From assembly GCA_963805085.1 (NCBI GenBank), contig CAWDTA010000003.1:256001-320000 (forward strand): 64,000 nt of DNA, read 5' to 3'. Numbering within the stretch: position 1 is the stretch's first letter; every line of letters starts with the position of its first letter. The stretch is from an uncultured Veillonellaceae bacterium. Lineage in GTDB: Bacteria; Bacillota; Negativicutes; JARBTT01. The notes below the pieces were generated by a model. It had not been told where the DNA came from. It worked only from the letters and a program-made list of their open reading frames with translations, and did not search any database. A program made the translations under genes and the position numbers. Shown piece by piece: positions 17,554 to 41,778 of the stretch.

Positions 17554-17958
17554 ATGCGTAGTAAATCACAAGCAATATTAGATCAGAATTTAGCAGCGCA
17601 ATATGCTTTAAATGAAAATGAATATGACAGTCAAAAAATTTTGAATATTATCCGACGTTATTATGAGCTAAGAAGTTCAGCCGAAATTACTGCTGCACAA
17701 TATGGCTATGTTAGCAGCGGTAGCGATCCTGCTCATGGTAAAGATTATATTATGTGTGTTCTTGCCGATATTGATCAGGGGGTATCTATATTATCAGCAA
17801 GACAATTGGATGTTGTTAAACTTTTAAAAATGGGGTATCTGATTAAGGAAATTAGTAAAATTTTGGGTCTCAGACAGGTGACTGTAAACTTTCATATCCG
17901 TCAGGCGGGCTTACGGTTAGCCGCCTATCTTAATGACTTAAGGGAAGTGATAAGATGA
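17554..17958 (+). CDS. Sigma70-region-4/LuxR-type HTH protein, putative activator of the tail locus
   Basis: C-terminal LSARQLDVVKLLKMGYLIKEISKILGLRQVTVNFHI HTH; RBS aaggagg. Confidence 0.7.
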   Translation: MRSKSQAILDQNLAAQYALNENEYDSQKILNIIRRYYELRSSAEITAAQYGYVSSGSDPAHGKDYIMCVLADIDQGVSILSARQLDVVKLLKMGYLIKEISKILGLRQVTVNFHIRQAGLRLAAYLNDLREVIR

Positions 17959-18149
17959 GACAATATTATACATTGGAAATGCTAGAGGAGTTTTAGCGGT
18001 GTCAAGAACCAAGTATGTCTGAAGAAGTAGTAGAGAAAAAGGCAAAAAATTTAAAGAGGGTATTAAACACTCTGGAAATTAGCTGGTCGCGCAGTAATCA
18101 CCGGTTTTATGAGCACAACCAGCTTCAGGATTTTTCGCAAAAAATTTAA
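17955..18149 (+). pseudogene. Small coupled ORF interrupted by an in-frame TAG
   Basis: ATGA overlap with the upstream stop; MRQYYTLEMLEEF*RCQEPS...FSQKI*, TAG at 17994-17996. Confidence 0.5.
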
Positions 18150-18210
18150 TTGAGGAATCACTATCCTTAGTTGCTGTTTAATGTACGTATAAAAAGTAGG
18201 AGGTGAAAAT

Positions 18211-18378
18211 ATGATTTGTCCACTACTTTATATCAAACCCGATAATACCATGGTTTCAGTTGGTCAATGTATGGAGGAGGCCTGCGCCTGGTGGATTACC
18301 GATAGTAGTACAACAGGTACAAGTACAGGTAAATGTGCAATCTGCCAGCTGGGAGAGTCTGCTGCCAAGCAGGAATAA
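18211..18378 (+). CDS. 55-aa Cys-rich small protein (absent from the ORF track)
   Basis: RBS aggaggtg; MICPLL...CMEEACAWW...KCAIC. Confidence 0.7.
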   Translation: MICPLLYIKPDNTMVSVGQCMEEACAWWITDSSTTGTSTGKCAICQLGESAAKQE

Positions 18379-18399
18379 TAGGAGAAAGGAGATGGCGAT

Positions 18400-18876
18400 A
18401 TGATTTCAACATTGAAATTAAGTGACATTACCAGTAAATGGCGGGATGCTTTAAAGGCAAGTACGGCGATTCAAAACTACTGCACGAGCAAGTACAATCA
18501 GATGCCAAAAATCTATGTTGGCATTAACGGTAAAAAATTGCCGGCAGATACCGACTGTCCATTGATCATCCTTTATCCCGGCGCGAAAACGGAAGGGCTC
18601 GAGCTAAAGGAATACACCTATAAACTTACAGTGGGCTGGATCATACTTCAAGACGCGACGACAACGACTAACAACGTAACAGAGTATTCGGGCGTTGCAG
18701 AATGTGATGAACTTGGCCAACTGATATATCAAGAACTGGCGGGACTGAGTACGGATAATCCGATCAGCGAAATGAAGTACAGTATTGAACCAGTGGCCTA
18801 TTATCCGCGTTTTCCCGGACGTATGGATATTACCATAAAATTAACGCCTGTCAATGGCTATAACATTGAATATTAA
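18400..18876 (+). CDS. Putative tail terminator/completion protein
   Basis: Size, position immediately before the tube gene and an alternating beta pattern; family not recognised with certainty. Confidence 0.55.
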   Translation: MISTLKLSDITSKWRDALKASTAIQNYCTSKYNQMPKIYVGINGKKLPADTDCPLIILYPGAKTEGLELKEYTYKLTVGWIILQDATTTTNNVTEYSGVAECDELGQLIYQELAGLSTDNPISEMKYSIEPVAYYPRFPGRMDITIKLTPVNGYNIEY

Positions 18877-18887
18877 GGAGGTACAAC

Positions 18888-19841
18888 ATGTCAAGAGCAA
18901 AAGGATATAATTCTCAATTAGCCATGGGGTATGAAACTACCTATGGCAAAACGCCAACGTCGATTAAGGGGTATAATATGCCGTTTAATCAGTCGAAAAT
19001 CGGAACTAAACAAAATTTAATCGAATCGAGCACTATTCGTGGACGCCGCGATAAAGAACAACCAGCGGTAGGGAGTATCGATGTATCCGGTAGTATCGTA
19101 GTGCCAATCGATCAGGTTGGCATTGGGTTTTGGTTAGCGGCTATGTTTGGCAGCCCGACGACTACTGGTACTGGTGATCCTTATACCCATGTTTTCAAAA
19201 TAAAAGATGGACAGCCCTCTTTAGTGCTGGAACAGCAATACCCAGATATTACAACCTATGAAATGTTTAACGGCTGCAAAGCAAATAAGTTTTCCTTTAC
19301 GTATGGTGGCGATACCGAGTTGACCGCCCAAATAGATTTAATGGGTGCTAAAAGAACGATTGGGGCAACGTCTTTTACCTCTGATTTGACCGATATCTCG
19401 CTATTAAGATACAGCAATTTTCAAGGGACGATCGAAGAAGGCGGTTCACAACTGGCTACTGTGACCGAAGCGAATCTAAACGTGGATTTTGGCCTAGATG
19501 GCAAGTCCTACACCATTGGTGGAGGCGGCTGTCGAACTGAACTCCCGGAAGGATACGTGCAAGCGTCCGGGAATATCAAGGCATTTTTCGAAGATACGGT
19601 GCTGCTGAATAAGGCGATAAATAACACCAAAACATCGCTGAATTTCAAGTTTGCAAATGGCATGCACAGCTTAGGATTTTTCATGGAAGAAGTAATGCTC
19701 CAGCAAACTTCACCCGGTATAGAAAATGAAAAAGGCATCATAATTAACCTACCGTTTAAGGCATATTACAACAGCGGCACAGGTGGCAGTATCCTTGTTG
19801 CGACACTGGTCAATGATCATGCTTCCTACGCAGTGTCCTAA
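18888..19841 (+). CDS. Phage tail tube (major tail) protein, non-contractile type
   Basis: N-terminal G.NSQLAMGYETTYGKTP; LAAMFG..T..G..PYTH.F and GC(K)AN.FSF patterns typical of siphophage tube proteins; RBS aaggagg. Confidence 0.8.
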   Translation: MSRAKGYNSQLAMGYETTYGKTPTSIKGYNMPFNQSKIGTKQNLIESSTIRGRRDKEQPAVGSIDVSGSIVVPIDQVGIGFWLAAMFGSPTTTGTGDPYTHVFKIKDGQPSLVLEQQYPDITTYEMFNGCKANKFSFTYGGDTELTAQIDLMGAKRTIGATSFTSDLTDISLLRYSNFQGTIEEGGSQLATVTEANLNVDFGLDGKSYTIGGGGCRTELPEGYVQASGNIKAFFEDTVLLNKAINNTKTSLNFKFANGMHSLGFFMEEVMLQQTSPGIENEKGIIINLPFKAYYNSGTGGSILVATLVNDHASYAVS

Positions 19842-19901
19842 ACAAAAATAAAACCAAGTAACAGATTAGCGACAAGACTTTATAAAATGTAAACTATATC
19901 A

Positions 19902-19940
19902 TTCTTTACGCATTGTGCTTATGAAACAATGCGTAAAGAA
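19902..19940. terminator. Perfect 15-bp hairpin after the tube gene
   Basis: ttctttacgcattgt-9 nt-acaatgcgtaaagaa. Confidence 0.7.
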
Positions 19941-19950
19941 ACTTGGATTA

Positions 19951-20046
19951 TTTTCAAAGCATAAAATTATATGGTACATATAACTTTAATTTTTCCGCGA
20001 GAAATAGAAAGAGATAACATAAAAAAGGCCTGTTGGCCTTTTTTTA
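19951..20046 (+). repeat. Conserved element upstream of toxin 1 (copy 1)
   Basis: Matches 22783-22869; ends in aaaaaaggcctgttggcctttttt. Confidence 0.7.
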
Positions 20047-20193
20047 ATGGGATAGTATAAAGAAAATTATATAAATGTGCATTGGATAAATACCTGATAT
20101 TACTTAACCTTTGAATAAAAATTCAAAATGTTGTTGTAAAGAGCATCGTTAGTCCTGAAGGCAAGATAATATGCGGAGGGAGGGGATTGATGG

Positions 20194-21651
20194 GTGGATT
20201 GGAGTATAGATGGTTTAAAAGCTGCGATTATTAATGAGACTACTTATGTGAGTAATAAAATTGATAATGAGCTTACTTATGCGTCTAACCAATTAGATAA
20301 AGGGGAAGCTGCGGTTCTTAATGAGGTTACTTATGCAAAAAATGTAGTGGAGAAAGTCTTTTTTCCAGATGCTTCAAATGATCGTCAATCTGGACAAGAT
20401 GAGAGTGACGATACAGCCAGCGCTGCTTCAACGCAATCGGCAAATGGGGTGCCTGCTCCGAGTGGAGAAGAATGGTACTATCAAAAGGCGCAAGAAATAC
20501 AAAATGAGCATCCAGAAATGAGCCAAGAACAGATAACTAATAAAATGTCGGAGGAAATCTGGAACAACAATTATAATGCATTAATGGATGATATTGCCCA
20601 TAGTAAAACGCCGGAAGAACGGGATCAAAAGATTAAAGACTATCAGGCGGAATTAGATAATTATAAAGCATCTGGAATTAATGTTGATAATGATGTAGAA
20701 TATCTTAGAGATGTGCAAGGTATGCCAAAAGAAACTATTTCAAGTAAAATAATTTCTTTGATGAGTAATTATTCATTTAAAGTTGTAGAGTATCAATATA
20801 GTGTACCTCCTGACAGTTTTGCATTTATTGAAATCCCAAAAGACGGAATCAGTATAGAGAAATATACTGATTACCAAATACAAAAGAATGATGCTGAGAA
20901 TACAGTACATAATAGTTTGCAACAACAGGTTGAGGAGTTACTTGAAAAAGCAAAAAAATTACAGTTTATTAACGGTCGTCAATTAACGGACGCGGATCGT
21001 GAAGCGGGTTATCAACTGATGCCAACTCTTAATGGGCTAACCTACGTAAGAGCGAGATATGAGGATGGTAACTGGGTAATCCATCCTGATGACAGGCAAC
21101 TGGTCCAAGAAAGCAACCAAGATGTTGCTAAAGGTATGCTCTTAGGTGGAGTTTTACCAGGTGTAATTAAAGGAGTAAATGCAAGTGGAAAAAGTCTGCT
21201 TAAGGCTTTTACACAGGAGTCGAGTGAAAATTTTAGATTTAAAGAAGTTAATAGATTTACTGCGGAAGAAACAAATCAATGGTTTGTAGATAACATAAAA
21301 CCGGATTATAAACCACCATATAGACCAGGTACGGTCGTGAAAGAAATTGAGTTAAGCGAAAAAACAACATTTGTACGTGTATATGATAATAATCCGGGTG
21401 GATCTGGTAAGTATGGTAGCTGGGTAATGGATGCTAAAGAGATAGAGGGATTGACACCAAATCAGATTCAAGATAAATTTGCTCTGCCGAATATCCCTAA
21501 ATATGTTTGTGATGTTGAATTAGAGTCAGCTACTCGTATACGGGTAGGTGAAGTAAATCCACTTGATGGTTGGGGGGATGGTGGAGGTACACAATATGAT
21601 TTAATTGGACAAAGAATAGGTAAGTTTATAAATGAAAGATTATTAGAATAG
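20194..21651 (+). CDS. Polymorphic toxin 1: shared N-proximal domain plus TNT-like putative NAD glycohydrolase C-terminus
   Basis: APSGEE..AQEIQNEHP..ITNKMSEEIWNNNY shared with 22938 and 24624; C-terminal RVY..GSW..FALP..G..GGGTQY; small gene follows. Confidence 0.7.
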   Translation: MDWSIDGLKAAIINETTYVSNKIDNELTYASNQLDKGEAAVLNEVTYAKNVVEKVFFPDASNDRQSGQDESDDTASAASTQSANGVPAPSGEEWYYQKAQEIQNEHPEMSQEQITNKMSEEIWNNNYNALMDDIAHSKTPEERDQKIKDYQAELDNYKASGINVDNDVEYLRDVQGMPKETISSKIISLMSNYSFKVVEYQYSVPPDSFAFIEIPKDGISIEKYTDYQIQKNDAENTVHNSLQQQVEELLEKAKKLQFINGRQLTDADREAGYQLMPTLNGLTYVRARYEDGNWVIHPDDRQLVQESNQDVAKGMLLGGVLPGVIKGVNASGKSLLKAFTQESSENFRFKEVNRFTAEETNQWFVDNIKPDYKPPYRPGTVVKEIELSEKTTFVRVYDNNPGGSGKYGSWVMDAKEIEGLTPNQIQDKFALPNIPKYVCDVELESATRIRVGEVNPLDGWGDGGGTQYDLIGQRIGKFINERLLE

Positions 21652-21660
21652 GAGAAAACT

Positions 21661-21999
21661 ATGTATAGTATAAAAGATAATAATCTATTTATTAATTTAA
21701 AATGCGTAAAGTTTGATTTTGACATAAGAAATACGGTAGAATATTCGGGGCGTGTAGTTATTCTTTTGAGTATTCCATTTACAAGCAACGATATTAACAA
21801 TATTTATTGTGTAAGTGAGCTTGGAGAAATAATATGGCAGTCAGAAGATCTGAATTTGCTTTATCCTGACCTCAAAAATCTACCATATGAACAAATGGGA
21901 ATAAAAGATGGTATTTTGTATGCTTCTGATTTTTATGGTAGAAGTTATATGATTGATTTGGATACTGGAAGAATAAAAGGCTGTAACATTGTAAAATAA
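21661..21999 (+). CDS. Putative immunity protein 1
   Basis: Small gene 9 nt after toxin 1 with RBS aggag; NNIYCV..GEIIWQ beta-rich pattern. Confidence 0.65.
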   Translation: MYSIKDNNLFINLKCVKFDFDIRNTVEYSGRVVILLSIPFTSNDINNIYCVSELGEIIWQSEDLNLLYPDLKNLPYEQMGIKDGILYASDFYGRSYMIDLDTGRIKGCNIVK

Positions 22000-22272
22000 T
22001 CAGTGAGTTAACTTTAAAGGAAATGTTCACTTCAAAAATTTGAAAAAATTAGCCGCAAAATGGTGGAAGTAAATCATAATAATGAAAACGATTAGGATAG
22101 TAAAAATTAGAGACAAGAACATATTTATCAACAATAATGGCAGCATCTTACGCAGATGCTGCCATTTCCATTACGACTTATCTTTATAGAAGTTGCGGCA
22201 TCCGTCGCACATGACGCACATTAGATCTAAATGTGAATTTCAAAAGTTATAAAAACAAAGGAGGAAAAAACA

Positions 22273-22635
22273 ATGGCACAATTTCCAAATATTCAACAGC
22301 CAGTATACCCATTTACCACTAAAATCAAAGACCCTTCTCTGCAGTCCGAAATGGAAAACGGGATGGTTCTTTCCCGGGCTAAGTTTACTCGGGTACCGAA
22401 GATCTTTACTCTGAAATGGACGGCTTTACCTGCCGCTGATTATGCAAGCTTGCGTGATTTTTACTGCAATACGGTTTATGGCGGGAGTTTGGCGTTTGAC
22501 TGGTCTTATCCAACCGTTGCGGACGACTCGTATTCCGGTAAGCTGTTCTCCGTTCGCTTCAAAAGCGAAGACATTAGTTTCGATTTAGCAGCACCGGGCT
22601 ACTATTCCGGCAGTATAACAATTCAGGAGGTGTAA
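22273..22635 (+). CDS. Distal tail protein (lambda gpM/Dit-like), copy 1
   Basis: Near-identical to 27104-27466; RAKFTR..FTLKW..L....LRDFY...GG..AFDW. Confidence 0.75.
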   Translation: MAQFPNIQQPVYPFTTKIKDPSLQSEMENGMVLSRAKFTRVPKIFTLKWTALPAADYASLRDFYCNTVYGGSLAFDWSYPTVADDSYSGKLFSVRFKSEDISFDLAAPGYYSGSITIQEV

Positions 22636-22636
22636 T

Positions 22637-22768
22637 ATGTTAAATTTATCAGTTGCCGGTATGCTGGAAAAAAGTCAGCTTTCCAGTGACGGTGTATGGC
22701 TTTTGCTAGTGGAAGTTGCTATCCCGGATAAACATAATAAGAATAGATCGGTCATAACGACTGCATAA
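22637..22768 (+). pseudogene. Truncated 5' duplicate of the gpL-like gene
   Basis: First 27 codons identical to 27468 (MLNLSVAGMLEKSQLSSDGVWLLLVEV), then divergence and a stop. Confidence 0.85.
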
Positions 22769-22782
22769 GACAGAAATAATTC

Positions 22783-22869
22783 TTTTCGAAGTATAAACTT
22801 ATAATATATATAACTTTAAGTTTTCGCGCGAAGTACAAAACGATAAAAAAGGCCTGTTGGCCTTTTTTT
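22783..22869 (+). repeat. Conserved element upstream of toxin 2 (copy 2)
   Basis: Matches 19951-20046. Confidence 0.7.
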
Positions 22870-22937
22870 ATTTGCTGTCGTTTAAACAAAAAGTGTGATA
22901 TGAACTATTCTTATTTTGAGAAAGGATTTAGAGGTTA

Positions 22938-24221
22938 ATGAAGTATACATTACCTAATGGAATGACTGTAGATGAAAATGGGATACAAGTACTCCCTGAT
23001 AATAATCAGCAATCGTCAGAAACTACAGAAACAGTGTCGCAAGTAACTACTGCTAGTGGAATTGACATTGGTGAAGAAGCCAAGAAGGCAATGGCTAGAG
23101 ACAATGCAAACGATCAGGGGAGCGAGAAAGTAGAGGTCGGCTCTGCCTTCGCGCAATCGGGAAACGATGTTCATGCTCCAAGTGGAGAAGAATACTACTA
23201 TCGAAGGGCGCAAGAAATACAAAATGAACATCCCGATTGGACTACTGATCAGATAACGAATAAAATGTCGGAGGAAATTTGGAACAACAATTATCATGCA
23301 TTAATGGAGGATATTGCCCACAGTAAAACGCCCGCAGAGCGAGACGCAAAAATCGAACAGTATAAATCGCAGCTTCTAGAGTATTATGTTTCTGGAATTG
23401 ATGTTGATAATGATGTAGAATATCTTAGAGAAGTACAAGGTGTAGAACCTCAATACAGATTATCACCAGACAATCCCGCGTTTGTTGATGCAATATTAAG
23501 TTTTCAAGATAGGGCAAATGGTTATGATTTAGAGGATAATGAAAATCATATAAAATGGAGAATTAAACCTTCTGGTGCAGTGCATCCTGATGATTGGGAC
23601 AATTATCTGATACAGCAAGAATATAAACAGTCTATACAAACAGTTTCTGATAACAACGTGATAAATTCAGAAAATGTGCATAAATTATTAGATGTAGCAG
23701 GTCTTTTTCCTGCTGCTGGTGCTGTTCCAGATCTAGGAAACTCGGCTTTATATTTGTTTGAGGGTAATTATGAAGAATCGAGAAATAGTGCAATTGCAGC
23801 AGTACCATTTGCTGGAGATTATTTTGCCGTAGCAGTAAAAGGTAGTAAGCTTTTCAAAGGTGTAGATGAAACGCGTAATGCTGTTGTCGAAGCTGAGCGC
23901 ATAGTGTCTCAAGACGTTGGTAAAGCCCCGAATGCCAACAATTATAGAAAATTATTTTTGAAGGAAAACCCAGAGATGCCTAAAACATATCAAGTGCATC
24001 ATACTTTGCCGCAAAAGTACGAAGAAATTCTAAATTTCAAGGAAATTAACATTCATGAGGCGAAGTATCTAGAAGGAATTGATCCAGATATTCATAAACA
24101 GATAACAAAGGAATGGCAGAAGTGGGACAAATCTTTAGGAAGAACTCCCACCTCAGAGGAGGTATTTGACTTTACACAGAAAATAGATAGTAAATATGGT
24201 CAGTTTTGGTACAAAAAATGA
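22938..24221 (+). CDS. Polymorphic toxin 2: shared domain, pre-toxin helical segment and HH-motif (His-Me finger-like) putative nuclease
   Basis: LDVAGLFP..G.VPD..NSALY..EG pre-toxin motif; QVHHTLPQ...IH...H..IT.EW. Confidence 0.72.
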   Translation: MKYTLPNGMTVDENGIQVLPDNNQQSSETTETVSQVTTASGIDIGEEAKKAMARDNANDQGSEKVEVGSAFAQSGNDVHAPSGEEYYYRRAQEIQNEHPDWTTDQITNKMSEEIWNNNYHALMEDIAHSKTPAERDAKIEQYKSQLLEYYVSGIDVDNDVEYLREVQGVEPQYRLSPDNPAFVDAILSFQDRANGYDLEDNENHIKWRIKPSGAVHPDDWDNYLIQQEYKQSIQTVSDNNVINSENVHKLLDVAGLFPAAGAVPDLGNSALYLFEGNYEESRNSAIAAVPFAGDYFAVAVKGSKLFKGVDETRNAVVEAERIVSQDVGKAPNANNYRKLFLKENPEMPKTYQVHHTLPQKYEEILNFKEINIHEAKYLEGIDPDIHKQITKEWQKWDKSLGRTPTSEEVFDFTQKIDSKYGQFWYKK

Positions 24222-24234
24222 AAGGGGAATGCAA

Positions 24235-24588
24235 ATGGAAAAACAAAAATTACTTTTTGAAAATCTAAAACGTATAAAAGATTATTGGGTTACCAACGGG
24301 ATACGAGATATTGAGCCTGATGCTGATTTGAGATTTTCTGATGTTAAGGAGGCCATTCAAGAATTGCAAAAAATAATATCTACTCAAAGTCAAAAAGATG
24401 CCTATAAGAGAGTCTTAAATGATATTATTGAAGGGGTTTTTCACTCTACTTTAGTAATGATTGATGGTGGAGATGCTTTAGCTGATAATATGAAAATTGA
24501 TTTAGTGGATTTTGATACTGGTGAGTCGTTAAAGGGCAAAACAGCCTTGCATGAAGAGTTTTTCGGCTATTTGCTGGATAATGAATGA
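24235..24588 (+). CDS. Putative immunity protein 2
   Basis: Follows toxin 2, RBS aaagggga; FHS.LVMIDG...LHE.F pattern. Confidence 0.65.
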   Translation: MEKQKLLFENLKRIKDYWVTNGIRDIEPDADLRFSDVKEAIQELQKIISTQSQKDAYKRVLNDIIEGVFHSTLVMIDGGDALADNMKIDLVDFDTGESLKGKTALHEEFFGYLLDNE

Positions 24589-24647
24589 AATTAAGATAAT
24601 TACTAACAACGTGGCAGCATCTCATGAGATGCTGCTATTTCCATTAC

Positions 24648-25852: not shown

Positions 25853-25959
25853 GAAAAAATAAAAAATGATTATATCAAAAACTAATTGAGAAAAAGTGAC
25901 GCGTGTGCTTTTGTCTCAACTAAAATGTAATTAAAGAGCAAAATGGCTAGCAGAGATGC

Positions 25960-26908: not shown

Positions 26909-27103
26909 GCAGAGATGCTAGTCATTTTTGTTGAGCTGAACAAGCAAATCCGAAAGCACAAGCGACAGCAAAACAATAGCTACCAAAGAAAATAATATGT
27001 GACCTTCGGGATGTTCCATGGATTGTTAGACAAGTTAACCATGACGTATAACAATCCCTAAATGTAAATTTCGAAAACCATAAAAACAAAGGAGGAAAAA
27101 ACA

Positions 27104-27466: not shown

Positions 27467-27467
27467 T

Positions 27468-33422: not shown

Positions 33423-33434
33423 ATATTTTGTGGG

Positions 33435-34751
33435 GTGAATTATATGTCATACAATAGCAAACTACCTATGGATGATGAATATATCGCGGCAGGTCCAACG
33501 GATATTCGCGAAAATCTTAGGGCATTAAAAGAGGATCAAATCGTCGATGCAGGAACGTTGGCTGGCTTGCCGGTGGGGAACGCCAGTGGCAATATTCCAG
33601 AAGCAAATGGAATCGTAAATAAGAATTTAAACGCCGACCTATTAGATGGGTATGAGGCAAGTGATTTTGCTACAGCGAGTCACAATCATTCGGCATCTAC
33701 AGCCTCAACCGCCGGATTTATGAGTGCTGCCGATAAAACCAAGCTGGACGGCATAGCCACCGGCGCCCAAGTTAACCAAAACGCCTTCGGAAATGTGGTG
33801 GTGGGTGGTACAACTCTTCAGGCTGATTCGATGACTGACACATTAACGTTAACAGCAGGAACAAACATTTCTCTTACTCCCGATGCCACCAATGACGCGG
33901 TAACGATTGCTGTATCAGGGACAGTACCTTCAGCCACTACGGCCACCACTTGCTCTGGTAATGCCGATACGGCTACGAAGTGGGCGACCGCCCGGACGCT
34001 GAGTTTTACTGGCGATGCCACAGGATCGATGTCTGTAGACGGAACAGCTGCGGCTAACGCTGAGCTAACCCTTAAGTCTACCGGTGTAACTGCAGGAACC
34101 TATCGAAGTGTTACCGTCGATGCCCAAGGCAGGGTGATAGCTGGGGCGAGTCCCACTTCTGAGGCTATTGATATAACAGGTAATGCGGCGACGGCTACTT
34201 CATGTAGTAGCGTAGCAAATGATAGCGGTAATATGCAATTCCATTGGAATGGACAAAGTGGGCAGCCAACTTGGCTGTGGGGTGGAAATGATTTTGGTAA
34301 TATGTATGTATATAAACCAAGTAATTTTAGGGTGAATTATGCGGATACTGCTGGAAACGCAAATACGCTTAATGGCAAAACTATTGCTGATTTAGGAACA
34401 GTTAAATTTAACACACAATATAGTGCTTCTTTTGACGGTAAGATTCTTAAAATAGTTGGCGAATTAACTAAATCTACTACTGCAACCGGTAAAGTTGCCC
34501 ATGGCGCGATTATAGCTGTACCAAGTGGATATACAAGAAGTCAAATTTATAGAGTGGATTTAACCCCTGTGTCTGGAAGTGCTGATAGCTATTATACTCC
34601 GGATGTTTGCAGTTATGATTATTCTAGCGGTCAGGTAACTTGCTATGTAGATATTACAACTACAAGTGGTGGCGGTATTTGTTCTGGACCAAGCACATAT
34701 ACAAAACGGCATTATGGTTCTGCTACTTATACGTTATATGCCGCACAATAA
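33435..34751 (+). CDS. Tail fibre / receptor-binding protein
   Basis: NADLLDG, AGFMSAADKTKLDGI, GNA.TAT.W.TAR, GV.AGTY.SVTVD..GRV fibre motifs. Confidence 0.8.
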   Translation: MNYMSYNSKLPMDDEYIAAGPTDIRENLRALKEDQIVDAGTLAGLPVGNASGNIPEANGIVNKNLNADLLDGYEASDFATASHNHSASTASTAGFMSAADKTKLDGIATGAQVNQNAFGNVVVGGTTLQADSMTDTLTLTAGTNISLTPDATNDAVTIAVSGTVPSATTATTCSGNADTATKWATARTLSFTGDATGSMSVDGTAAANAELTLKSTGVTAGTYRSVTVDAQGRVIAGASPTSEAIDITGNAATATSCSSVANDSGNMQFHWNGQSGQPTWLWGGNDFGNMYVYKPSNFRVNYADTAGNANTLNGKTIADLGTVKFNTQYSASFDGKILKIVGELTKSTTATGKVAHGAIIAVPSGYTRSQIYRVDLTPVSGSADSYYTPDVCSYDYSSGQVTCYVDITTTSGGGICSGPSTYTKRHYGSATYTLYAAQ

Positions 34752-34769
34752 TAATTGGGAGATGATCAC

Positions 34770-35033
34770 ATGTTTATTATATTAAGAGATAATAAAGTTG
34801 TAAGTACGGCTAGTAGTAAGCCTTGTGAAGAAGATCTAAAAAATAGAAATGAATTTAGCCTGGAAAAGGATACTGATACGAGAATTTCTATTGGGGATAT
34901 TTATGCCAATGGTAAATTTTCACCATCGGAAGAACCGATTAAGGAACCTGAGGAAATTCCATTAGAAGAGTTATCTAATGAATCGCTTATGCAGTTAATT
35001 CGTGCAATGTATCAAAATAGTTATTATTATTAA
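34770..35033 (+). CDS. Putative tail fibre assembly/chaperone protein
   Basis: Small acidic protein after the fibre gene, with IGD.Y.NG.F..P motif. Confidence 0.55.
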   Translation: MFIILRDNKVVSTASSKPCEEDLKNRNEFSLEKDTDTRISIGDIYANGKFSPSEEPIKEPEEIPLEELSNESLMQLIRAMYQNSYYY

Positions 35034-35280
35034 GGCGGAGTTGATAGGATAGTTGTTCGTAATAACTGGACTAAGCTGCTCTATATAAAAGTTTTTATTA
35101 GAAATAGTTCTTCCGATGGTGAATTTTCACCATCGGAAGAACCAATTAAAGAGCCTAAAAAAGTTCCATTAGAAGAATTATCTAATGAATCGCTTTTACA
35201 TTTTATTCGTACGTTGTATCAAGATAGTTATTATTAAGGAGGCGTTGACATGCTAGCTATTCATAGTAACTGGACTAAGC
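34909..35280 (+). repeat. Imperfect tandem duplication (period about 205 bp) of the chaperone 3' end plus the next gene's 5' end
   Basis: 34909-35076 matches 35116-35280. Confidence 0.85.
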
Positions 35281-36101
35281 CGTTTTATACAAAAAAAGCT
35301 TTGAATACAGAATATCGGCTAGAAGATTATGATGTTATAACAACGATATTATCCGCTTTAAAATGGCGACAACATAATGGCAGCATAAGAATGGTAACGG
35401 ATAATAGGGGGTTAGAATATTATAAAAAATTGGGGATAACGGATATATGGGATTTAGGAGTAGATACGTTTTTAGAAAGTATAACAATCAACCAGGATTT
35501 ATTTTGGTCTGCTGGTAAAATATATGCATTAAAAAATCAATTGTTACCCTGTGTAATCATGGATACTGATTTTATCGTGTGGGAGAAAATCGAAGATGAA
35601 TGGTGGAGTCATAAAATAGCTGCTATTCATGCTGAACCGGCTGTTTTCGCTAAAGAACTTTTTAAGATGAAACCAGGCTATGTATTTGATTCGCGTTTGG
35701 ATTGGAATATTACGCCGTTTAATGCTGGATTTGTTTTCTTTAATGATCAAGAGTTTGTTAGTTATTATTTAGATGAAGTTATTACATTTATGGAGAATGT
35801 AGAACCAGAGAACAAAAAAAGTTTATGTACTCCTTTTGCTGATGAGCACATTTTAGCGATGTGTGCTAAGAAAGAAGAAATAGAAATAAGAGCATTTATA
35901 GAATTGGCAAAAGCCAGAGAACAAAAGAGATTTAGCCATATTTGGATGTATAAAAATGTATTAAGGATGAATCCTGTTCTAAGAAAAGATTTTTGTATTA
36001 AGTTTTTAAATCGTATCATAACTGAGTTTCCGGAATATAAAGATATGATTTATAATATCGAAATGTTTCATGTATATTTGAAAGATGGTGATATAGTATG
36101 A
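35250..36101 (+). CDS. DUF6734-like putative glycosyltransferase-fold protein (paralog 1)
   Basis: HSNWTKPF, LSAL.WR, TD..G, FWS.GK, MDTD (DxD), NAG. Confidence 0.6.
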   Translation: MLAIHSNWTKPFYTKKALNTEYRLEDYDVITTILSALKWRQHNGSIRMVTDNRGLEYYKKLGITDIWDLGVDTFLESITINQDLFWSAGKIYALKNQLLPCVIMDTDFIVWEKIEDEWWSHKIAAIHAEPAVFAKELFKMKPGYVFDSRLDWNITPFNAGFVFFNDQEFVSYYLDEVITFMENVEPENKKSLCTPFADEHILAMCAKKEEIEIRAFIELAKAREQKRFSHIWMYKNVLRMNPVLRKDFCIKFLNRIITEFPEYKDMIYNIEMFHVYLKDGDIV

Positions 36102-37015
36102 TCGCTAATCACACGAATTGGACTAAGCCCTTTTATGTAAAAAATGGTTTAGATGTAGAATATACAATGGAAGATTATGATGTTATAACAACTATATTAT
36201 CTGCTTTAAAGTGGAGAGAATTTAATGGTAGTATAAGGATGATAACAGACAATATCGGTTTAGAATATTATAAAAAATTAGGCATAACGTCTATATGGGA
36301 TTTAGGCGTAGATGCTTCTTTGGAACAATTTAATGAAAAATCGTATATTGACTATAGTGCTTTTTGGTCGATTGGGAAGGTGTTATCATTAAAAACACAA
36401 CAATTACCCTATGTAATGATGGACACAGATCTCTTGGTATGGGAAACCATTGAAGATACATGGTGGGAAAACGAATTGGTTGCCATTCACACCGAACCTC
36501 TGGCAGGCTTCTATTTTGATAAAAATAAAATGCAAGAACACATGAAACCAGAATATAATTTTGATTCTGAATGGGATTGGGATCTGTTGCCGTTCAATAC
36601 AGGATTTACATTTTTCAACAATAAAAAATTCGTAGAGTATTATTTGAACGAAGTGATAAGGTTTATGAAAAACATAAATCCATCAAAAGAATGTACACCG
36701 ACAGAGAAAAGAGTAATATATTCTATATTTACAGACCAAAGATTGTTTTCTATGTGTGCGAAAAAAATAGGGATAGAAATAAAACCATTCATGAACTTGA
36801 AAAATGCCAGAAGGCAAACGAGATTTTCACACATTTGGATGTATAAAGATAGATTAAAAAGTGATCCTGCTATCCGCAAAGATTTTTGCGTTAAGTTTTT
36901 AAATCGTATAGTAACAGAGTTTCCCGAATATGAAGCTATGATTTATAACATCGAAATGTTTCATAAATATTTAAAACTTAAGCTTTCCAGCACAAGTCTG
37001 CAAGAAAAATTGTAA
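36098..37015 (+). CDS. DUF6734-like putative glycosyltransferase-fold protein (paralog 2)
   Basis: Clear paralog of 35250 with the same motifs; ATGA overlap. Confidence 0.6.
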   Translation: MIANHTNWTKPFYVKNGLDVEYTMEDYDVITTILSALKWREFNGSIRMITDNIGLEYYKKLGITSIWDLGVDASLEQFNEKSYIDYSAFWSIGKVLSLKTQQLPYVMMDTDLLVWETIEDTWWENELVAIHTEPLAGFYFDKNKMQEHMKPEYNFDSEWDWDLLPFNTGFTFFNNKKFVEYYLNEVIRFMKNINPSKECTPTEKRVIYSIFTDQRLFSMCAKKIGIEIKPFMNLKNARRQTRFSHIWMYKDRLKSDPAIRKDFCVKFLNRIVTEFPEYEAMIYNIEMFHKYLKLKLSSTSLQEKL

Positions 37016-37313
37016 CAAGTAAGAGCCTAGGGGCTCTATTTTATTTTGAGGTAATTTATGCGATGGTTCAAAAGGGCATCTTTAGTTTATCTTCTAGTAT
37101 TGCACTGACCGAAATCTTAGTACTGAAACTGTAAAATTCTACCGAAGTTTTAATGAGACCAATTTGAAAGTCAAGTTGGTCTAGTTGTCATGGAAAAATC
37201 TAATACGATTTTTCAAAAAATAGCAAAAATTATCTTGATCTTTTTAGCGAGTTTTTTATGCCGTTTAAAAAGTGCTTTATATTGAATGTATATCAATGAA
37301 GAGGGGGGAGGAT

Positions 37314-37487
37314 GTGGGAGATGATACTGTTCTTAGATTAATCAACAAAATAGACGATTTAAGTGATCGGTTGGCTAGAGTTGAAACATTGCTGGAAGAA
37401 CGGGAGAAAAGCAAAGTAAGTATTGTTGGATTACTCGCGTGGTTAACAACTACCGTAATAGCAGTTTATGGGGTGTCACATAAATAG
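37314..37487 (+). CDS. Holin-like / XhlA-like small membrane protein
   Basis: Coiled coil RLARVE followed by one C-terminal TM helix; precedes the endolysin; GTG start after strong RBS. Confidence 0.6.
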   Translation: MGDDTVLRLINKIDDLSDRLARVETLLEEREKSKVSIVGLLAWLTTTVIAVYGVSHK

Positions 37488-37503
37488 AGAGGAGGGACTA
37501 GAG

Positions 37504-38064
37504 TTGAGAAAAGTAACACTAGAAGAATTGCGACAGCTTGCTTTAAATAGCAAAGAATCGCTTTGGCAAGCGGCGCACAGCGTAGACCGTGATATAAAGC
37601 TATACCTTCATTGGTCAGCTGGCCATTATGGACAATTTTTTGATGACTATCATATCAATATTGATCAAGATGGTAGTATTCATATCAGCACTGAAGATTT
37701 AAGCACTGTATTAGCGCATACTTGGCATAGAAATACCGGGGGTGTGGGGATTGCTTTAGCTTGTTGCGTAGGTGCTGCTACGAATGGTCTAGGACTCGAA
37801 CCGCCTACAACCAGACAAATTGAAGTTATGGCGCAGGTGGTCAGTGTATTAGCAGATGCCTTAGATTTAACCATCGATCTTCAGCGTGTCATGACGCATG
37901 GGGAGGCTGGTGATAACATGGATGGCTTAGATTTAACCGAAAAATATGGTATGAACAGCACTTGTGAACGCTGGGATGCTGCTATATTGCACAATGGTGA
38001 CACTTGGGGCTCCGGTGGAGATATTTTAAGAGGTAAGGCCATTTGGTATCAAAATAACCCATAA
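37504..38064 (+). CDS. Endolysin, N-acetylmuramoyl-L-alanine amidase (Amidase_2-like)
   Basis: LYLHWSAG, YHINID, AHTWHRN..GIA, THGE zinc-amidase motifs; TTG start after gaggagg. Confidence 0.8.
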   Translation: MRKVTLEELRQLALNSKESLWQAAHSVDRDIKLYLHWSAGHYGQFFDDYHINIDQDGSIHISTEDLSTVLAHTWHRNTGGVGIALACCVGAATNGLGLEPPTTRQIEVMAQVVSVLADALDLTIDLQRVMTHGEAGDNMDGLDLTEKYGMNSTCERWDAAILHNGDTWGSGGDILRGKAIWYQNNP

Positions 38065-38075: not shown

Positions 38076-38927
38076 ATGCTTACTATAATTTTCGTTAGGG
38101 GAGACCCAGAAAATATTATTGACCGTACAATTGAGACATTCAGCAAGGGTGATTATTGCCATGTGGCCATTAAATTTCCTTGGGGAATTGTTGAATCACT
38201 GGGGGTACCGGAACTTGGCTTTATGCCGGGTGTAAGGCTGTCTCCAATAAATAAGTATGACGATGCCAATATTTTAGCAATTGACATAAAAATGCCAGAT
38301 CAGGTCGCAGCCGAACGGAAGGCGCAAAACCTAATTGGTAGGTTGTATAGTTATATCGGCTGCTTCGAAGGTGGAACGTATGATATAACCGGTATAAAAT
38401 TGCATCCATGGATTGTTAAAATACTCAACTGGTTTTTAACTAGATTTCTTGGTGTACCACTGAGCATCGATACTGGCGAATGGACAATGAATTGCTCTGA
38501 AACCGTCACCAGAATTTTAAGGGCTGGCGGTCTTGAGGTTTTACCTGGTGTAGATGCCGATTGTATTACGCCAATGGATTTAGTTAGATATTTCAATAAA
38601 AATAATGAGGGGGACTTACAAATGAGTGAAGAAACTACAATATCCACAAATATTCCAACTGACACAGTACCTAGCGAAAGTATTTCTGATGTATTAGCGG
38701 ATTCTGCAAGTACAATAATCGACACCGCTGCAGCTTCTGGCAACACTTCCGTAACCAACTGGGTCACAGAGGAAATCGCAAAACTGAGAGCAGAAATTAA
38801 CTCAACCTCGAACCTTACGGTAGCTGCAAGGGATAAAATTGAAATTGCGGCTTTGGAAGCCATGTCAGTTGTAGCTTTGACTGAGTTAAAAAATCTTACT
38901 GCAAAACTTAAAGACAAAGTATCCTAA
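38076..38927 (+). CDS. Permuted papain-like (YaeF/YiiX-type) amidase fused in frame to a ~100-aa helical protein
   Basis: YCHVAI (His) precedes MNCSE (Cys); internal RBS gaggggg plus ATG at 38622. Confidence 0.65.
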   Translation: MLTIIFVRGDPENIIDRTIETFSKGDYCHVAIKFPWGIVESLGVPELGFMPGVRLSPINKYDDANILAIDIKMPDQVAAERKAQNLIGRLYSYIGCFEGGTYDITGIKLHPWIVKILNWFLTRFLGVPLSIDTGEWTMNCSETVTRILRAGGLEVLPGVDADCITPMDLVRYFNKNNEGDLQMSEETTISTNIPTDTVPSESISDVLADSASTIIDTAAASGNTSVTNWVTEEIAKLRAEINSTSNLTVAARDKIEIAALEAMSVVALTELKNLTAKLKDKVS

Positions 38928-38934
38928 GGAACAT

Positions 38935-38980
38935 AAGAGCAGGCAAATTTACCGTTCGCGGTAAATCTGCCTGCTCTGTT
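38935..38980 (+). terminator. Terminator closing the tail/lysis operon
   Basis: agagcaggcaaatttacc...ggtaaatctgcctgctct. Confidence 0.8.
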
Positions 38981-39161
38981 TAGGTTAAAACTATATGCTA
39001 TATATTTTTGTTTATTGCAAATTTCAAACTTCTTGATATGCAGTATAAAACCAAATAAATTTATTTCTGGGAATAAAGGGATATTATACAATAGAGCGAA
39101 TGAAATAAATTTAGAAAGTCAGCTTGTTAAATAAAGAGTAATGAAATGAGGAAGTGAAAGA

Positions 39162-39416
39162 ATGGTAAATTTCATTCGTGCGATTTTGGCAATAGCGGTT
39201 ATTCCTATTGGTCTGCCTGTGATGCTTATTTCATTTGATATTGTTGGTTCTTCCGGTTTAGATAATGTGTTTACCCAAATGATATTTTGGTCAATGTTTC
39301 TATTCCCTGTCTTTCTTCTGCTTGCATTTGGATTGTCTTATCGTAATACAAAATTTCTGTATTTGCCTTTAATCAATATTATTGGTTTTATAATCGGATT
39401 TTTAGGGGTGCAATAA
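39162..39416 (+). CDS. Small multi-TM membrane protein, possible immunity
   Basis: Three hydrophobic stretches. Confidence 0.6.
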   Translation: MVNFIRAILAIAVIPIGLPVMLISFDIVGSSGLDNVFTQMIFWSMFLFPVFLLLAFGLSYRNTKFLYLPLINIIGFIIGFLGVQ

Positions 39417-39538
39417 TTTATATAGAACGGATAATTAACGCTGTAAAAGAATTAGTTATTTTGAGGAAGTCTTTAATAGGAGTTAATAAAGAATCAGATA
39501 AATAGAGTATTTTTGAAACACTTTAAGGAGGAGAAAGT

Positions 39539-40105
39539 ATGAACAACCAGCAGGATCGTTATGGGGATAAATTTATACGACAGTTGATTAATTTTTTTTC
39601 TCAAGGATATATTTACTATGCCCTATTCATTTTTACAAGTACTGCTTGCTTATTATTACTTGAAGTCTCGCTAGTACTTCCAGGTCTCTTTTATAAACTT
39701 GATTCTATATTTCCTGTAAACAAACTTAGCGCAATATTCAGTGTACTATCCCTCGGATCAGCAATACTTGTATATTTTAGCACAAATATACCCAGTTCAT
39801 TTTACCAAAGCAGACTTTTTAAAAATATTTTAAAATGCTTTCGTTATTTAGTAATATTATTACTAATATGCTCGTGCCTTTTTGCCTTAGTTTCGTGTAT
39901 ACTTATGTTTTATTTTATTTACTCTCCTGTCTATTCAAAGAGTGGAAGTGAATTGACAACTATTGTATTAGGGATACTATCTCCTTTTATAGTACTTTTT
40001 TCATATATTAGTTCTTTTACATCTCAAGACAAAAATAAAATAATTTTTTTGTTATTGCCAATGGTTTTTATGGTTTTTGTATTTTCCATTGTTTCACTTG
40101 TCTAA
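39539..40105 (+). CDS. Multi-TM membrane protein, possible immunity to the lipase effector
   Basis: About five hydrophobic stretches, very AT-rich, RBS aaggagg, directly upstream of the lipase. Confidence 0.6.
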   Translation: MNNQQDRYGDKFIRQLINFFSQGYIYYALFIFTSTACLLLLEVSLVLPGLFYKLDSIFPVNKLSAIFSVLSLGSAILVYFSTNIPSSFYQSRLFKNILKCFRYLVILLLICSCLFALVSCILMFYFIYSPVYSKSGSELTTIVLGILSPFIVLFSYISSFTSQDKNKIIFLLLPMVFMVFVFSIVSLV

Positions 40106-40209
40106 TTAGGTTTTGCATCTCTAAGTCTGGAATTCAATGAGTTTATGTTAACCATTTATAAATGAAAAAAATTAAGCAGGTAATGCTGAAAGAAAAGGAG
40201 TTAAGGAGT

Positions 40210-41778
40210 ATGAACATTAGTTTTAAAGATGCTGCGCAGCTTGCGTATGCTGGCTATCAAGGTCATAGTGATCAAGTCGATGGATGGCAACTTGGTTTGC
40301 TAAATCATCCAAGTATAAAATCTACTTTTGATGATGGTGACGGTAATGGATTTTTCGGAAGCGGTACTGGTGCGTATGCAAGAGTTTATTCAAATGAAGC
40401 TATTGTGGTCATAACATTTTCTGGGACAAATACCAAAAATGACGTAAGGGATTGGCCTACTTTTGGGGCCTATCAACAAGCTGCCATGAGAAATTGGACA
40501 GATCGTATTGTACACCAAGCTATGGCAGATGGGAAAAATATAGTATTTACGGGAGATAGTCTAGGTGGGCTACTTGCTCAACGGGAACAAAGATTATACG
40601 GCGGAGACAGTATTGCTTTTAATACAGCAGGCCTCTTAAAATCTGATATAGATAAAATAAGTCAACAAAGAGATGCGTGGATTAATGGTGGAGGAGCAGC
40701 TTATGAAGGTGGCGCGCGTATATATGTGAATGCAGATGGTCAAATACTGGAGAATTTTGGCGGATACACTGGGACTGTTTATACTGTTCCAACACAAATG
40801 GGATATCAGCTACAGAGCTTATATGAAGACATGAAGATATATGGTTACGACGACGTTAGAATGGGACAAATATCAGAGCTTCAATTACGAGCACATATCG
40901 AGGGAATGGCTGAAGTAGCAAATTATATCAATATTTTTGGTGAGCCGATACTTGGCAAGTTAGATTTATCTTGGTATAAAGAACATGGATATCCAGGTGA
41001 AGGCGGTGGTACTGAAAAAGACACTGCAGATGTTTCGTTACTTATAGTAAAAGGGGAAGTGTCAGTAAAGGATTATCATAATGCCGCGGGAATAGTAGCT
41101 GCTATGAAGTTAGAGGGCAATCCAGAAGCACAAAAAGCTGTTGATACTTTTTTCGGTATGGATCGTGACAAATATAGCTTTAACCAAAACAATCTAAATA
41201 CCTTGGGCAATCTTAGAAGTATTCAAGGTGTAGCTCATGAATACCTATTGGCACCAGATGATCCAACTTTTATTGATGCAACATTAAGTTTTCAGGATAT
41301 GGCTAACGGTTATGCTTTGGAAGAGAATGAATTTGGAGTATGGTGGAGGATTACTGCATCTGGACAAGTGCATCCAGATGATGTAGACAAGTATCAGAAA
41401 CAGTATGAATATTATGAAAGATTGCATTCTGGCACCATACTTAGAGCGCTACCGCCAGAAGAAGCGTTTAAGTTTAAAAGGAAGGAACACGAAAATTCTG
41501 ATTATATTCATATAGCAGACTTGCCCAATTCTATCAAGAAAGAGAGTATTGGTACTGACTTTGAAGATATTGTAGCAGCTCTAGGAGGAATAAAGGATAC
41601 ACGGAATAATGTTTTTGGAAATTTTGCCAGTTTCGGAGCAGATATACCAAAAGGAGTAGGTTTAGGAAAGATGGGAGTCAGTATTCTTGGTGAAGAAGCT
41701 GACCTATTTAAGGATGCTATTAATACTGGAGAATTTAAGGCGTTATTTGAGTCTATGCAATTAAGAAATGACGAATAA
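40210..41778 (+). CDS. Alpha/beta-hydrolase (lipase) effector carrying the shared HPDD module
   Basis: VITFSGT, FTGDSLGG nucleophile elbow, AFN.AG; 41212-41412 homologous to toxins 2 and 3; start ATG 40210 after aaggag. Confidence 0.72.
   Translation: MNISFKDAAQLAYAGYQGHSDQVDGWQLGLLNHPSIKSTFDDGDGNGFFGSGTGAYARVYSNEAIVVITFSGTNTKNDVRDWPTFGAYQQAAMRNWTDRIVHQAMADGKNIVFTGDSLGGLLAQREQRLYGGDSIAFNTAGLLKSDIDKISQQRDAWINGGGAAYEGGARIYVNADGQILENFGGYTGTVYTVPTQMGYQLQSLYEDMKIYGYDDVRMGQISELQLRAHIEGMAEVANYINIFGEPILGKLDLSWYKEHGYPGEGGGTEKDTADVSLLIVKGEVSVKDYHNAAGIVAAMKLEGNPEAQKAVDTFFGMDRDKYSFNQNNLNTLGNLRSIQGVAHEYLLAPDDPTFIDATLSFQDMANGYALEENEFGVWWRITASGQVHPDDVDKYQKQYEYYERLHSGTILRALPPEEAFKFKRKEHENSDYIHIADLPNSIKKESIGTDFEDIVAALGGIKDTRNNVFGNFASFGADIPKGVGLGKMGVSILGEEADLFKDAINTGEFKALFESMQLRNDE

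Follow-up and report, generated by a model that had tools for sequence, protein, structure and literature searches.

A headless, lambda-like siphophage tail locus of the Negativicutes with polymorphic toxin cassettes in the tape measure slot

Positions 17554-41778 of a 64,000-nucleotide stretch of contig CAWDTA010000003.1, from an uncultured soil bacterium of the Veillonellaceae, form a single island of 26 co-oriented open reading frames (ORFs) on the + strand. Throughout, the window means that whole stretch. The island resembles the tail module of a lambda-like siphophage into which toxin genes have been inserted. From one end to the other it encodes a sigma-like regulator, a small Cys-rich ORF, a tail terminator, a tail tube, toxin/immunity cassettes, the tip proteins M, L and K, an I-J fusion, a fibre, lysis genes and a lipase-like protein. 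An initial annotation had proposed a co-oriented island, and all the parts that it named are present where it had placed them, on the + strand. The flanks are cellular, with two Peripla_BP_6 genes upstream and a convergent HAD/DeoR pair downstream; a hairpin with 26-nt arms (41876-41937) lies just beyond the downstream end of the island. Gene maps, here and for related loci, are based on our own ORF calls and on BLAST against the window proteins.

The tail module opens with a 158-aa protein (18400-18876, +) belonging to phrog_17431 (7.2e-44), a family of unknown function. Its profile, like that of M, matched no PDB sequence, and hhalign gave probabilities below 1%, on shallow alignments, against both lambda gpU and the Baskent_P4_1 terminator. 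For its AF2 model, the best Foldseek match was lambda gpU (3fz2_E, E 3.4e-5), followed by the lambda tail cap 8iyd_K, T5 p142 and the monocin cap, and nearly all matches were tail terminators; in the ESM Atlas, a Phage_tail_terminator cluster appeared at rank 16 (0.94). Despite the low confidence of the model, we consider this ORF, located just before the tube gene, to be probably the tail terminator, with a gpU-like fold. The tube protein itself (317 aa, 18888-19841, +) is encoded by a single copy gene in this genome and belongs to PF18906 (1.8e-57) and phrog_290, its nearest solved relative being PDB 8xan_B (4.9e-13).

The tip genes follow the lambda order. An M-like protein of 120 aa is encoded twice, at 22273-22635 (+; phrog_384, 2.4e-9) and at 27104-27466 (+; phrog_384, 9.2e-10). 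This is a duplication: the DNA of copy 1 is 95% identical to 27058-27500 over 443 nt, the two copies differ mainly at synonymous sites (dS 0.18; ratio of nonsynonymous to synonymous substitution rates, dN/dS, 0.06), and copy 1 is trailed by the first ~94 nt of an L gene (22636-22729). Compared with lambda gpM by hhalign, M gave a probability below 1% on a shallow alignment. Downstream of copy 2 are a 205-aa gpL-like protein (27468-28085, +; PF05100 3.1e-18, phrog_18 9.8e-35), whose Cys156, Cys167, Cys176 and Cys183 are conserved in 17-18 of 18 homologues, and a gpK-like NlpC/P60 protein (28087-28482, +; NlpC/P60 5.4e-15, phrog_329). The longest K ORF begins at 28018, and 28087 is its likely start, because relatives align only from residue 23-24. 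The central fibre or hub (1647 aa, 28479-33422, +) has a gpI-like N-terminus fused to gpJ and FN3 repeats (GpJ FNIII-A 2.4e-25, Phage-tail_3, fn3; phrog_31 3.9e-162, phrog_32); it matches lambda gpJ in the PDB (8iyk_J, 2.2e-15), and lambda gpI (8iyk_I, 6.6e-4) matches its residues 74-189. It is followed by a side or tail fibre of 438 aa (33435-34751, +; phrog_7389 tail fibre, 1.3e-30), conserved across loci at the N-terminus and variable at the C-terminus. G+C content is 44-48% in the tip and fibre genes (26000-34000), compared to 34-38% in the toxin cassettes and flanks, and the tail backbone may have originated in a G+C-richer lineage.

Three toxin-immunity pairs had been proposed within this tail module. 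All three are present, with the correction that the third toxin is an N-truncated orphan. Toxin 1 (485 aa, 20194-21651, +) has a variable N-terminus, a shared region that we call module A (residues ~86-186) and a variable C-terminal domain, with a weak, under-cut-off match to Ntox10 (0.0034) that is the only family hint among the three toxins of the window. Toxin 2 (427 aa, 22938-24221, +) contains module A (79-170), a second shared region or module B (157-240), a PT-TG-like stretch and a variable C-terminal domain, and has no match in Pfam or PDB. Toxin 3 (320 aa, 24624-25586, +) carries module B at 65-148 and a C-terminal domain of its own; we regard it as an orphan cassette because its ORF begins within the shared region, inside module A. 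Each toxin is followed by a candidate immunity gene: one of 112 aa starting 10 nt past the toxin 1 stop (21661-21999, +), one of 130 aa overlapping the end of toxin 2 (24196-24588, +) and one of 101 aa overlapping the end of toxin 3 (25547-25852, +). Family scans gave no match for the first two and a weak one to phrog_11728 for the third. The first is dissimilar to eight other candidate immunity ORFs compared, the second is likewise without similarity to other candidates, and among nine small ORFs located after toxins in different loci there were no non-self matches; in the window such ORFs overlap or abut the toxin genes.

Module A spans ~95 aa and module B ~60-80 aa, the latter with the motif P.N.AF..A.LS..D..NGY.L......W R....G..HPDD. 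Similarity between toxins is confined to these shared parts and ends abruptly. Toxins 1 and 2 are 63-86% identical within residues 78-167 only; toxin 3 is 63-100% identical to toxin 2 over residues 91-240 of the latter and 13-23% thereafter; and toxin 2 is 73-100% identical to the toxin of a same-genus relative (locus L003) up to residue ~297, and 6-36% beyond. In six pairs of toxins, 63-100% identity in the shared part gives way at a sharp breakpoint to 6-36%. Among 21 slot proteins of related loci, the C-terminal domains found with Pfam were EndoU (2), Ntox10 (2), Colicin-DNase, WHH, DUF6883 and Phage_lysozyme. N-terminal parts of the toxins matched no Pfam family and no recognised trafficking domain (type V, VI and VII secretion systems, Sec, etc.), and modules A and B, toxins 1 and 2 and the 538-aa lipase-like protein at the end of the island gave no meaningful match among PDB sequences. 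In the ESM Atlas, the toxin homologue P0003 leads to the polymorphic-toxin clusters TNT, PT-TG, Ntox46 and RHS. Judging from sequence, the architecture of these proteins is that of a polymorphic toxin system, a known trafficking domain excepted, and modules A and B look like adaptors, not like a full translocation machinery. Other N-terminal modules have been shuffled as well: toxins of loci L005 and L011 share a repeat, 'GDW(L)YR.YG ... DADG..Y.RFGGGDWY', and module A is doubled in those of L005 and L041.

A leader with a G+C-rich hairpin, a T run and terminator-like sites separates the tube gene from toxin 1 (19947-20046, +) and is repeated at 22779-22870, with an exact 28-nt repeat shared by 20019-20046 and 22843-22870. 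A strong G+C-rich hairpin 3' of the tube gene occurs in 12 of 15 tube-to-toxin spacers (the two of the window and 13 others), the three without it being those of Sporomusa silvacetica. This hairpin may be an attenuator setting the tube:toxin ratio, and its presence would fit many tube subunits per toxin. With respect to L003, the window has gained the block 19853-22868, comprising the leader, toxin 1, immunity 1 and M.

The arrangement is not restricted to the window. With the tube protein as query, we obtained 14 loci, belonging to Massilibacillus, Pelosinus, Sporomusa, Lucifera and other Negativicutes, and 25 further regions were read from sampled genomes. Among the carriers are cultured organisms such as Sporomusa silvacetica DSM 10669, S. 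rhizae DSM 16652 and Lucifera butyrica. Their common order is regulator, Cys-rich ORF, terminator, tube, toxin, small ORF, M, L, K, J and fibre. Tube, toxin, immunity and M follow each other in all 14 tube-to-M intervals readable whole (window, L003, L004, L006 with two, L008, L010, L012, L013, L016, L039, L041, L043 and L044), and an ORF of the toxin family lies directly 3' of the tube gene in 13 of them, L012 having a 233-aa membrane protein instead. ORFs in this slot measure 100-674 aa, none being larger, and its use by toxins spans at least nine GTDB families. The synteny sought in Negativicutes, tube plus toxin plus M, thus recurs, and does so without head genes. There are variations: in Lucifera the order is rearranged to toxin, toxin, immunity, M, L, K, terminator, tube and J, and Sporomusa silvacetica (L006 and L008; chromosome 273-309 kb) has three tandem terminator-tube-toxin copies in ~20 kb, each with a different toxin C-terminus, of which unit 1 is devoid of L, K and J, and unit 3, with K shortened to 116 aa, lacks a J homologue.

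What the slot would normally hold can be read from the nearest prophages, whose tubes are 43-55% identical to those of the lineage. Their order is terminator, tube, a small ORF in the position of the assembly chaperone, an ORF of 896-1187 aa in the position of the tape measure protein (TMP), and the distal tail genes (M-L-K-J in L033 and L035, others in L031 and L037). Three of the four long ORFs match PHROG tape-measure families (that of L031 does not), and one carries a tail lysozyme domain. Lambda-type head genes lie just upstream where scanned: a terminase and a protease-capsid fusion in L032, the same plus Phage_portal_2 in L034, and a protease-capsid fusion in L035. The toxins occupy the chaperone and TMP slot, filled in the nearest prophages by a TMP of 896-1187 aa, which is the strongest clue and one that the initial annotation had overlooked. 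Comparing the toxins to the four related TMPs by blastp and with module A and B profiles yielded nothing significant, the best match being module A against the TMP of L031 (E 0.002 in a 4-sequence database), so that nothing here indicates a descent of the toxins from the TMP. The terminator, tube, L, K and J genes are 41-58% identical to their prophage counterparts, while M is 72-88% identical across the lineage and 25-32% identical to prophage M, making it the most diverged component and yet a conserved one within the lineage.

No head genes were found. The initial annotation had recognised no capsid, portal, terminase, integrase, sheath or tape measure gene, and our family scans of the 26 island ORFs agree with it, with no assembly chaperone found either. 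The orthologous loci are not full prophages: when 188 head, connector, chaperone and TMP ORFs of prophages were compared to 25 tail loci (414 kb), the matches were limited to lysis or fibre parts and a shadow ORF. The bacterium's own genome, 83% complete, has no homologue of the head or TMP genes of the nearest prophages. GpA, the one terminase family searched for in carrier genomes, is absent from this genome, from G216 (one contig) and from G006, and lies 0.6-0.9 Mb away from the tail loci in G160 and G040. We also considered a gene transfer agent and rejected it, given that the own genome (83% complete) has no head-gene homologue of the prophage lineage and no terminase of the only family searched, GpA.

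Purifying selection acts on this tail. All tail ORFs are intact, and median dN/dS values (pairwise Nei-Gojobori) are 0.086 for the terminator, 0.092 for the tube, 0.077 for M, 0.082 for L and 0.127 for J, so that the tail genes (0.08-0.13) do not evolve neutrally. In a tube tree, the 18 lineage tubes form one group (support 100/99) against five prophage or hybrid tubes, with midpoint rooting only.

We then quantified how tightly toxins and tails are associated in a sample of 401 Negativicutes genomes, which are related by descent, so the counts are descriptive and do not amount to a statistical test. A tube homologue was found in 48 genomes, 16 of them at 68% identity or more, the next best being at 54%; module B was found in 19 genomes and module A in nine. 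Every one of the 16 genomes with a lineage tube has module A (8 genomes), module B (14 genomes) or both, in most cases on the same contig as the tube. Outside the lineage, module A appears in one of 385 genomes, weakly (G172, 8.8e-4), and module B in five of 385: G051, which has a hybrid locus, G010, where it is a 106-aa remnant, G019, a weak match within a 2531-aa ORF, and G034 and G132, which have only prophage-level L homologues (41-43% identity). Locus searching with a narrowed module-B alignment recovered four loci, all of them already in the set. The toxin family is hence mostly linked to the tail, as had been anticipated.

In a wider profile search among 1.84 billion representative proteins, module B proved rare, with 90 matches, 69 of them at 1e-10 or better, in proteins of 84-1600 aa that bear it at the N-terminus, in the middle or at the C-terminus. 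We scanned 84 of the 90 against Pfam, omitting toxin 2 of the window, two weak matches in multiple stretches and the three weakest or shortest. Fusions were to Amidase_6 (5), Lipase_3 (4), CHAP (4), Mbeg1-like (4), NlpC/P60 (2), SLT (2), Tlde1 (2), LysM (2) and, once each, AHH, M23, DUF4329, Ntox44, Phage_lysozyme, EndoU and YkuD; eight more families had one weaker member each. Enzymes attacking peptidoglycan, membranes and nucleic acids and mounted on a small, movable module are typical of type VI secretion system (T6SS) effectors.

The remaining genes of the island include those for regulation and lysis. The first gene encodes a 134-aa regulator (17554-17958, +) with a LuxR/GerE-type helix-turn-helix (GerE 1.4e-6; phrog_3512 'sigma factor' 6.2e-5) that resembles sigma-70 region 4; homologues with 35-81% identity also start related loci, and its median dN/dS is 0.25. 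A 55-aa Cys-rich ORF (18211-18378, +) lies upstream of the terminator gene in every one of 13 aligned loci, with the motif CPLLC..QC..E.C.WW..GKCAIC and, in front of it, a conserved leader, 'ATGTACG.ATAAAG'; Pfam and PHROG scans gave no match for it. As for the holin/endolysin pair of the initial annotation, the endolysin (198 aa, 37468-38064, +) is backed by phrog_5867 (7.2e-33), with Amidase_2 at 24.2 bits for a cut-off of 26 bits, and the holin (71 aa, 37272-37487, +) is a candidate from its position and one C-terminal hydrophobic stretch. Next come a 283-aa ORF and two membrane proteins of 84 and 188 aa (38076-40105, +), recognised by one weak PHROG match and by hydrophobic stretches, and finally the 538-aa lipase-like protein (40162-41778, +), which has an N-terminal GDSLGG motif and module B at 345-428 (1.2e-41), and whose gene contains a DNA repeat. 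Its earlier label of lipase effector finds no Pfam match and is carried by the motif and module B; the two membrane proteins may confer immunity to it.

Two further features complete the island. An insertion sequence (IS) remnant (25940-26928, +), internally deleted, sits between the orphan cassette and M; it has 43-nt inverted repeats on either side of a DDE transposase ORF that is truncated (26088-26900; DDE_Tnp_1 2.2e-11), and the stretch 25970-26908 is absent from L003. After a 92-aa ORF behind the fibre gene, which together with its downstream spacer (34755-35250) holds a 162-nt tandem duplication and nested inverted repeats, come two tandem DUF6734 paralogues of 283 and 305 aa (35250-37015, +; PF20508 4.9e-14 and 2.8e-15) with direct repeats. 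No counterpart of this pair was seen in any other locus read, and a role in modifying the fibre or the receptor of the producer itself is conceivable. Outside the island, there are weak matches to proteins of prophage baseplate and lysis regions, at C5:819-829 kb of the own genome and at 50091-50633 of the window, which may correspond to another phage-derived element or to cell-wall hydrolase paralogues. Among the sequencing runs listed there was no match in RNA, and those in DNA were small shares of soil and groundwater metagenomes.

From the observed gene content, conservation, selection, loss of the TMP, polymorphic-toxin architecture and toxin-tail linkage, we read the island as a lambda-like siphophage tail, headless and domesticated, whose TMP and chaperone genes were lost and whose vacated slot gained polymorphic antibacterial toxin cassettes. 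We propose, with a probability of roughly one half, that it produces a TMP-less tail released by lysis and carrying the toxins as cargo. Since the TMP is gone, the other tail genes are constrained and the slot is filled with toxins, these would have taken over the place of the TMP in the particle, its role in killing, or both. Three observations agree with this: modules A and B resemble adaptors, M, the slot-adjacent part, has changed most with respect to prophages, and a strong hairpin comes after the tube gene in most spacers. In the F-pyocin, the TMP is the central assembly scaffold for tube, cap and tip (10.64898/2026.02.24.707460), so that a conserved tail lacking it would need a substitute.

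In such a particle, every step past transcription is what we infer and not what we observed. The sigma-like regulator would turn the operon on; the I-J fusion, L, K and M would form a tip on which the tube would polymerise, to be capped by the gpU-like protein; and toxins bearing module A and/or B would enter the tube lumen or the tip cavity in the TMP's stead, while cognate immunity proteins would shield the producer. Holin and endolysin would then lyse the cell and release the particles. In a crude hydropathy scan most toxins had no N-terminal hydrophobic stretch, which, together with the presence of lysis genes, fits release by lysis. J and the fibre would bind the outer membrane of related diderm Negativicutes, and tip opening would let peptidoglycan hydrolases, lipases and nucleases into the target. 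That the device is a non-contractile injection machine in this full sense, with toxins tagged by module A or B filling tube or tip and freed into the target on tip opening, appears to us a slightly worse than even bet.

Several observations weigh against the toxin-carrying tail. Its formation without a TMP, the physical loading through modules A and B, the presence of toxins inside particles and their delivery are deduced here from genes alone. The toxins have no similarity to the prophage TMPs, and their lengths (244-674 aa) and globular enzyme domains are unlike those of a TMP. No module is universal, some toxins carrying only A and others only B. The model of the terminator is of low confidence (mean pLDDT 61.5, pTM 0.65), and the genome assembly is 83% complete. 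Lysis genes are non-orthologous between loci (holin, GH25 or lysin) and were not seen in every locus. Some related units are also at odds with the common plan: in L009 and L015, from a Sporomusa metagenome-assembled genome, tube, toxin and immunity or small ORFs are followed by K and J, with M and L missing, although these units may share components with sister units; and L036 (G051:C261) is a hybrid in which a prophage-type tube, 50% identical, is directly followed by lineage-type M, L and K (76-80%), with a module-B toxin after K, at the contig end. Finally, module-B toxins occur without the lineage tail in G010, G034, G132 and, weakly, G019, and orphan module-B toxins lie far from any tail gene, with housekeeping genes around them, in L021, L022 (B plus Amidase_6), L023 and L029 (B plus Lipase_3, adjoining a WD40 protein), with no other secretion genes nearby.

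These last toxins, found in three to four genomes without the tail and as orphans, are what one would expect from the main rival, in which the toxins are soluble bacteriocins, similar to colicins or S-pyocins, that have nothing but the regulator and the lysis genes in common with the tail. In that case modules A and B would serve receptor binding or translocation, and the tail would act alone or as an adhesin. The absence of signal peptides from the toxins fits release by lysis in this case too, and the 538-aa lipase-like protein stands at the outer end of the island. There is a precedent in Pseudomonas, where R-tailocin clusters are described as embedding co-induced bacteriocin genes, one product of which, LlpA, was detected in purified particles (Ghequire 2015, PMC4684702). 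The Pseudomonas tail, however, is contractile, the cargo genes lie at the outer regions of the cluster, the tail module is intact, and the bacteriocins are unrelated and lack a shared adaptor module; here, chaperone and TMP are replaced, in 14 of 14 intervals. We would moreover have to explain strong purifying selection on a TMP-less tail that, judging from the F-pyocin work, would have no known way to assemble or kill alone. The modules themselves also fit poorly. Colicins have translocation and receptor-binding domains in a fixed order, unlike module B, which is ~60-80 aa long and found at either end of proteins, and module A occurs almost solely beside tubes. Altogether, we consider soluble bacteriocins the less likely explanation, if the most serious competitor to toxin loading.

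We deem it decidedly more improbable that the cassettes are selfish or defence modules, for addiction or abortive infection, accumulated at a hot spot for recombination within a tail-derived element with another function. Recombination at the site is active, as seen from cassette turnover, the orphan copy, the duplicated M and the IS remnant, and toxin position varies in some loci, with an additional toxin between L and K in L012, one past K in L036 and others past the fibre in L025 and L039. But the domains are those of secreted interbacterial toxins, among which peptidoglycan hydrolases and lipases act outside the cytoplasm, the same slot serves in at least nine GTDB families, and toxins with module A or B are kept in 16 of 16 lineage genomes. 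As to the initial annotation's own alternative of a decaying prophage that has collected toxin cassettes, for which the descent of the tail genes from a lambda-like prophage lineage, the IS remnant, the truncated toxin and a chromosomal position that varies between genera (the flanking genes of other genera are housekeeping genes, whose counterparts in the own genome lie elsewhere) could be invoked, we reject it as very remote, and with it a prophage of any kind, intact or decaying, because no head, packaging, integration or replication genes were found, the headless, TMP-less order holds in 25 loci of several genera, dN/dS is 0.08-0.13 with every tail ORF intact instead of neutral decay, the lineage tubes form a single clade, units have multiplied in tandem to three copies in Sporomusa silvacetica, and toxins are linked to the tail.

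A toxin-carrying tail of this kind has no exact counterpart among known systems. Like the F-type tailocins (the F-pyocin of Pseudomonas aeruginosa and the monocin of Listeria), the island is a headless chromosomal siphophage tail cluster, with no head, packaging or replication genes found, that has a terminator, a tube, a lambda-like M/L/K/I/J tip, fibres, a regulator and a lysis cassette, the monocin cap being among the fold matches of its terminator. It differs from them in lacking their defining TMP with its assembly chaperones, neither of which was found among the 26 ORFs or in the 25 loci, nor a TMP in the own genome, and in having polymorphic toxins in the slot. To our knowledge, no enzymatic cargo has been described for the F-pyocin, and non-contractile tailocins are thought to kill by means of tail and tape measure alone. 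The lambda tail module (U-V-G-T-H-M-L-K-I-J) provides the same gene order, U by fold and L, K, I and J by homology, down to the four Cys of gpL. Here, in contrast, toxin/immunity cassettes stand in for G, T and H, I and J form one fused protein, the tube belongs to PF18906 and not to the gpV family, and M has no similarity to gpM detectable by hhalign.

With the T6SS (Hcp-, VgrG- or PAAR-bound effectors), the extracellular contractile injection systems (eCIS) such as the Photorhabdus virulence cassettes (PVC), and the Streptomyces SLP, the island shares descent from phage tails, a repertoire of amidases, lipases, Tlde1, lysozymes and nucleases, and a small shared module. All of those are contractile, with a sheath and a baseplate; the tip of the island is lambda-like, its toxins lack TMP similarity and, with no sheath, baseplate wedge or spike family found among its 26 ORFs, we reject a contractile system, R-type tailocins included. 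We know of no phage-tail-derived machine for protein cargo delivery that is not contractile. The nearest published idea is that of Sle1, an effector of the contractile Streptomyces particle presented as a TMP-type protein acting as a reconfigurable packed effector (PMC13277306).

MuF toxins are associated with the head of phages rather than with the tail. As a class, polymorphic toxins (contact-dependent inhibition, Rhs, LXG, MafB and phage MuF) resemble the island toxins in their conserved N-terminus, variable C-terminal toxin, variable immunity gene and truncated orphans, the difference being that the latter have no known trafficking domain (PMC3482391, PMC5576092). The first 300,000 characters of Zhang et al. 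2012 (PMC3482391) contain neither 'tape measure' nor 'tail tube', and among the papers searched, supplements excluded, none describes non-contractile tails that carry toxins, or tailocins of Negativicutes or Sporomusa.

If toxins do travel in this tail, it would be the equivalent of eCIS and T6SS on the siphophage side, the TMP slot serving as cargo bay, and diderm Firmicutes would have a new route for delivering toxins between bacteria. Nature would also have provided an experiment on tube assembly and opening in the absence of a tape measure, and modules A and B could tag proteins for loading into a simple, re-targetable particle. Even if the toxins were merely co-released with the tail, two things would still be new: a TMP-less tail lineage kept by purifying selection and, in polymorphic toxins, a module of the trafficking type.

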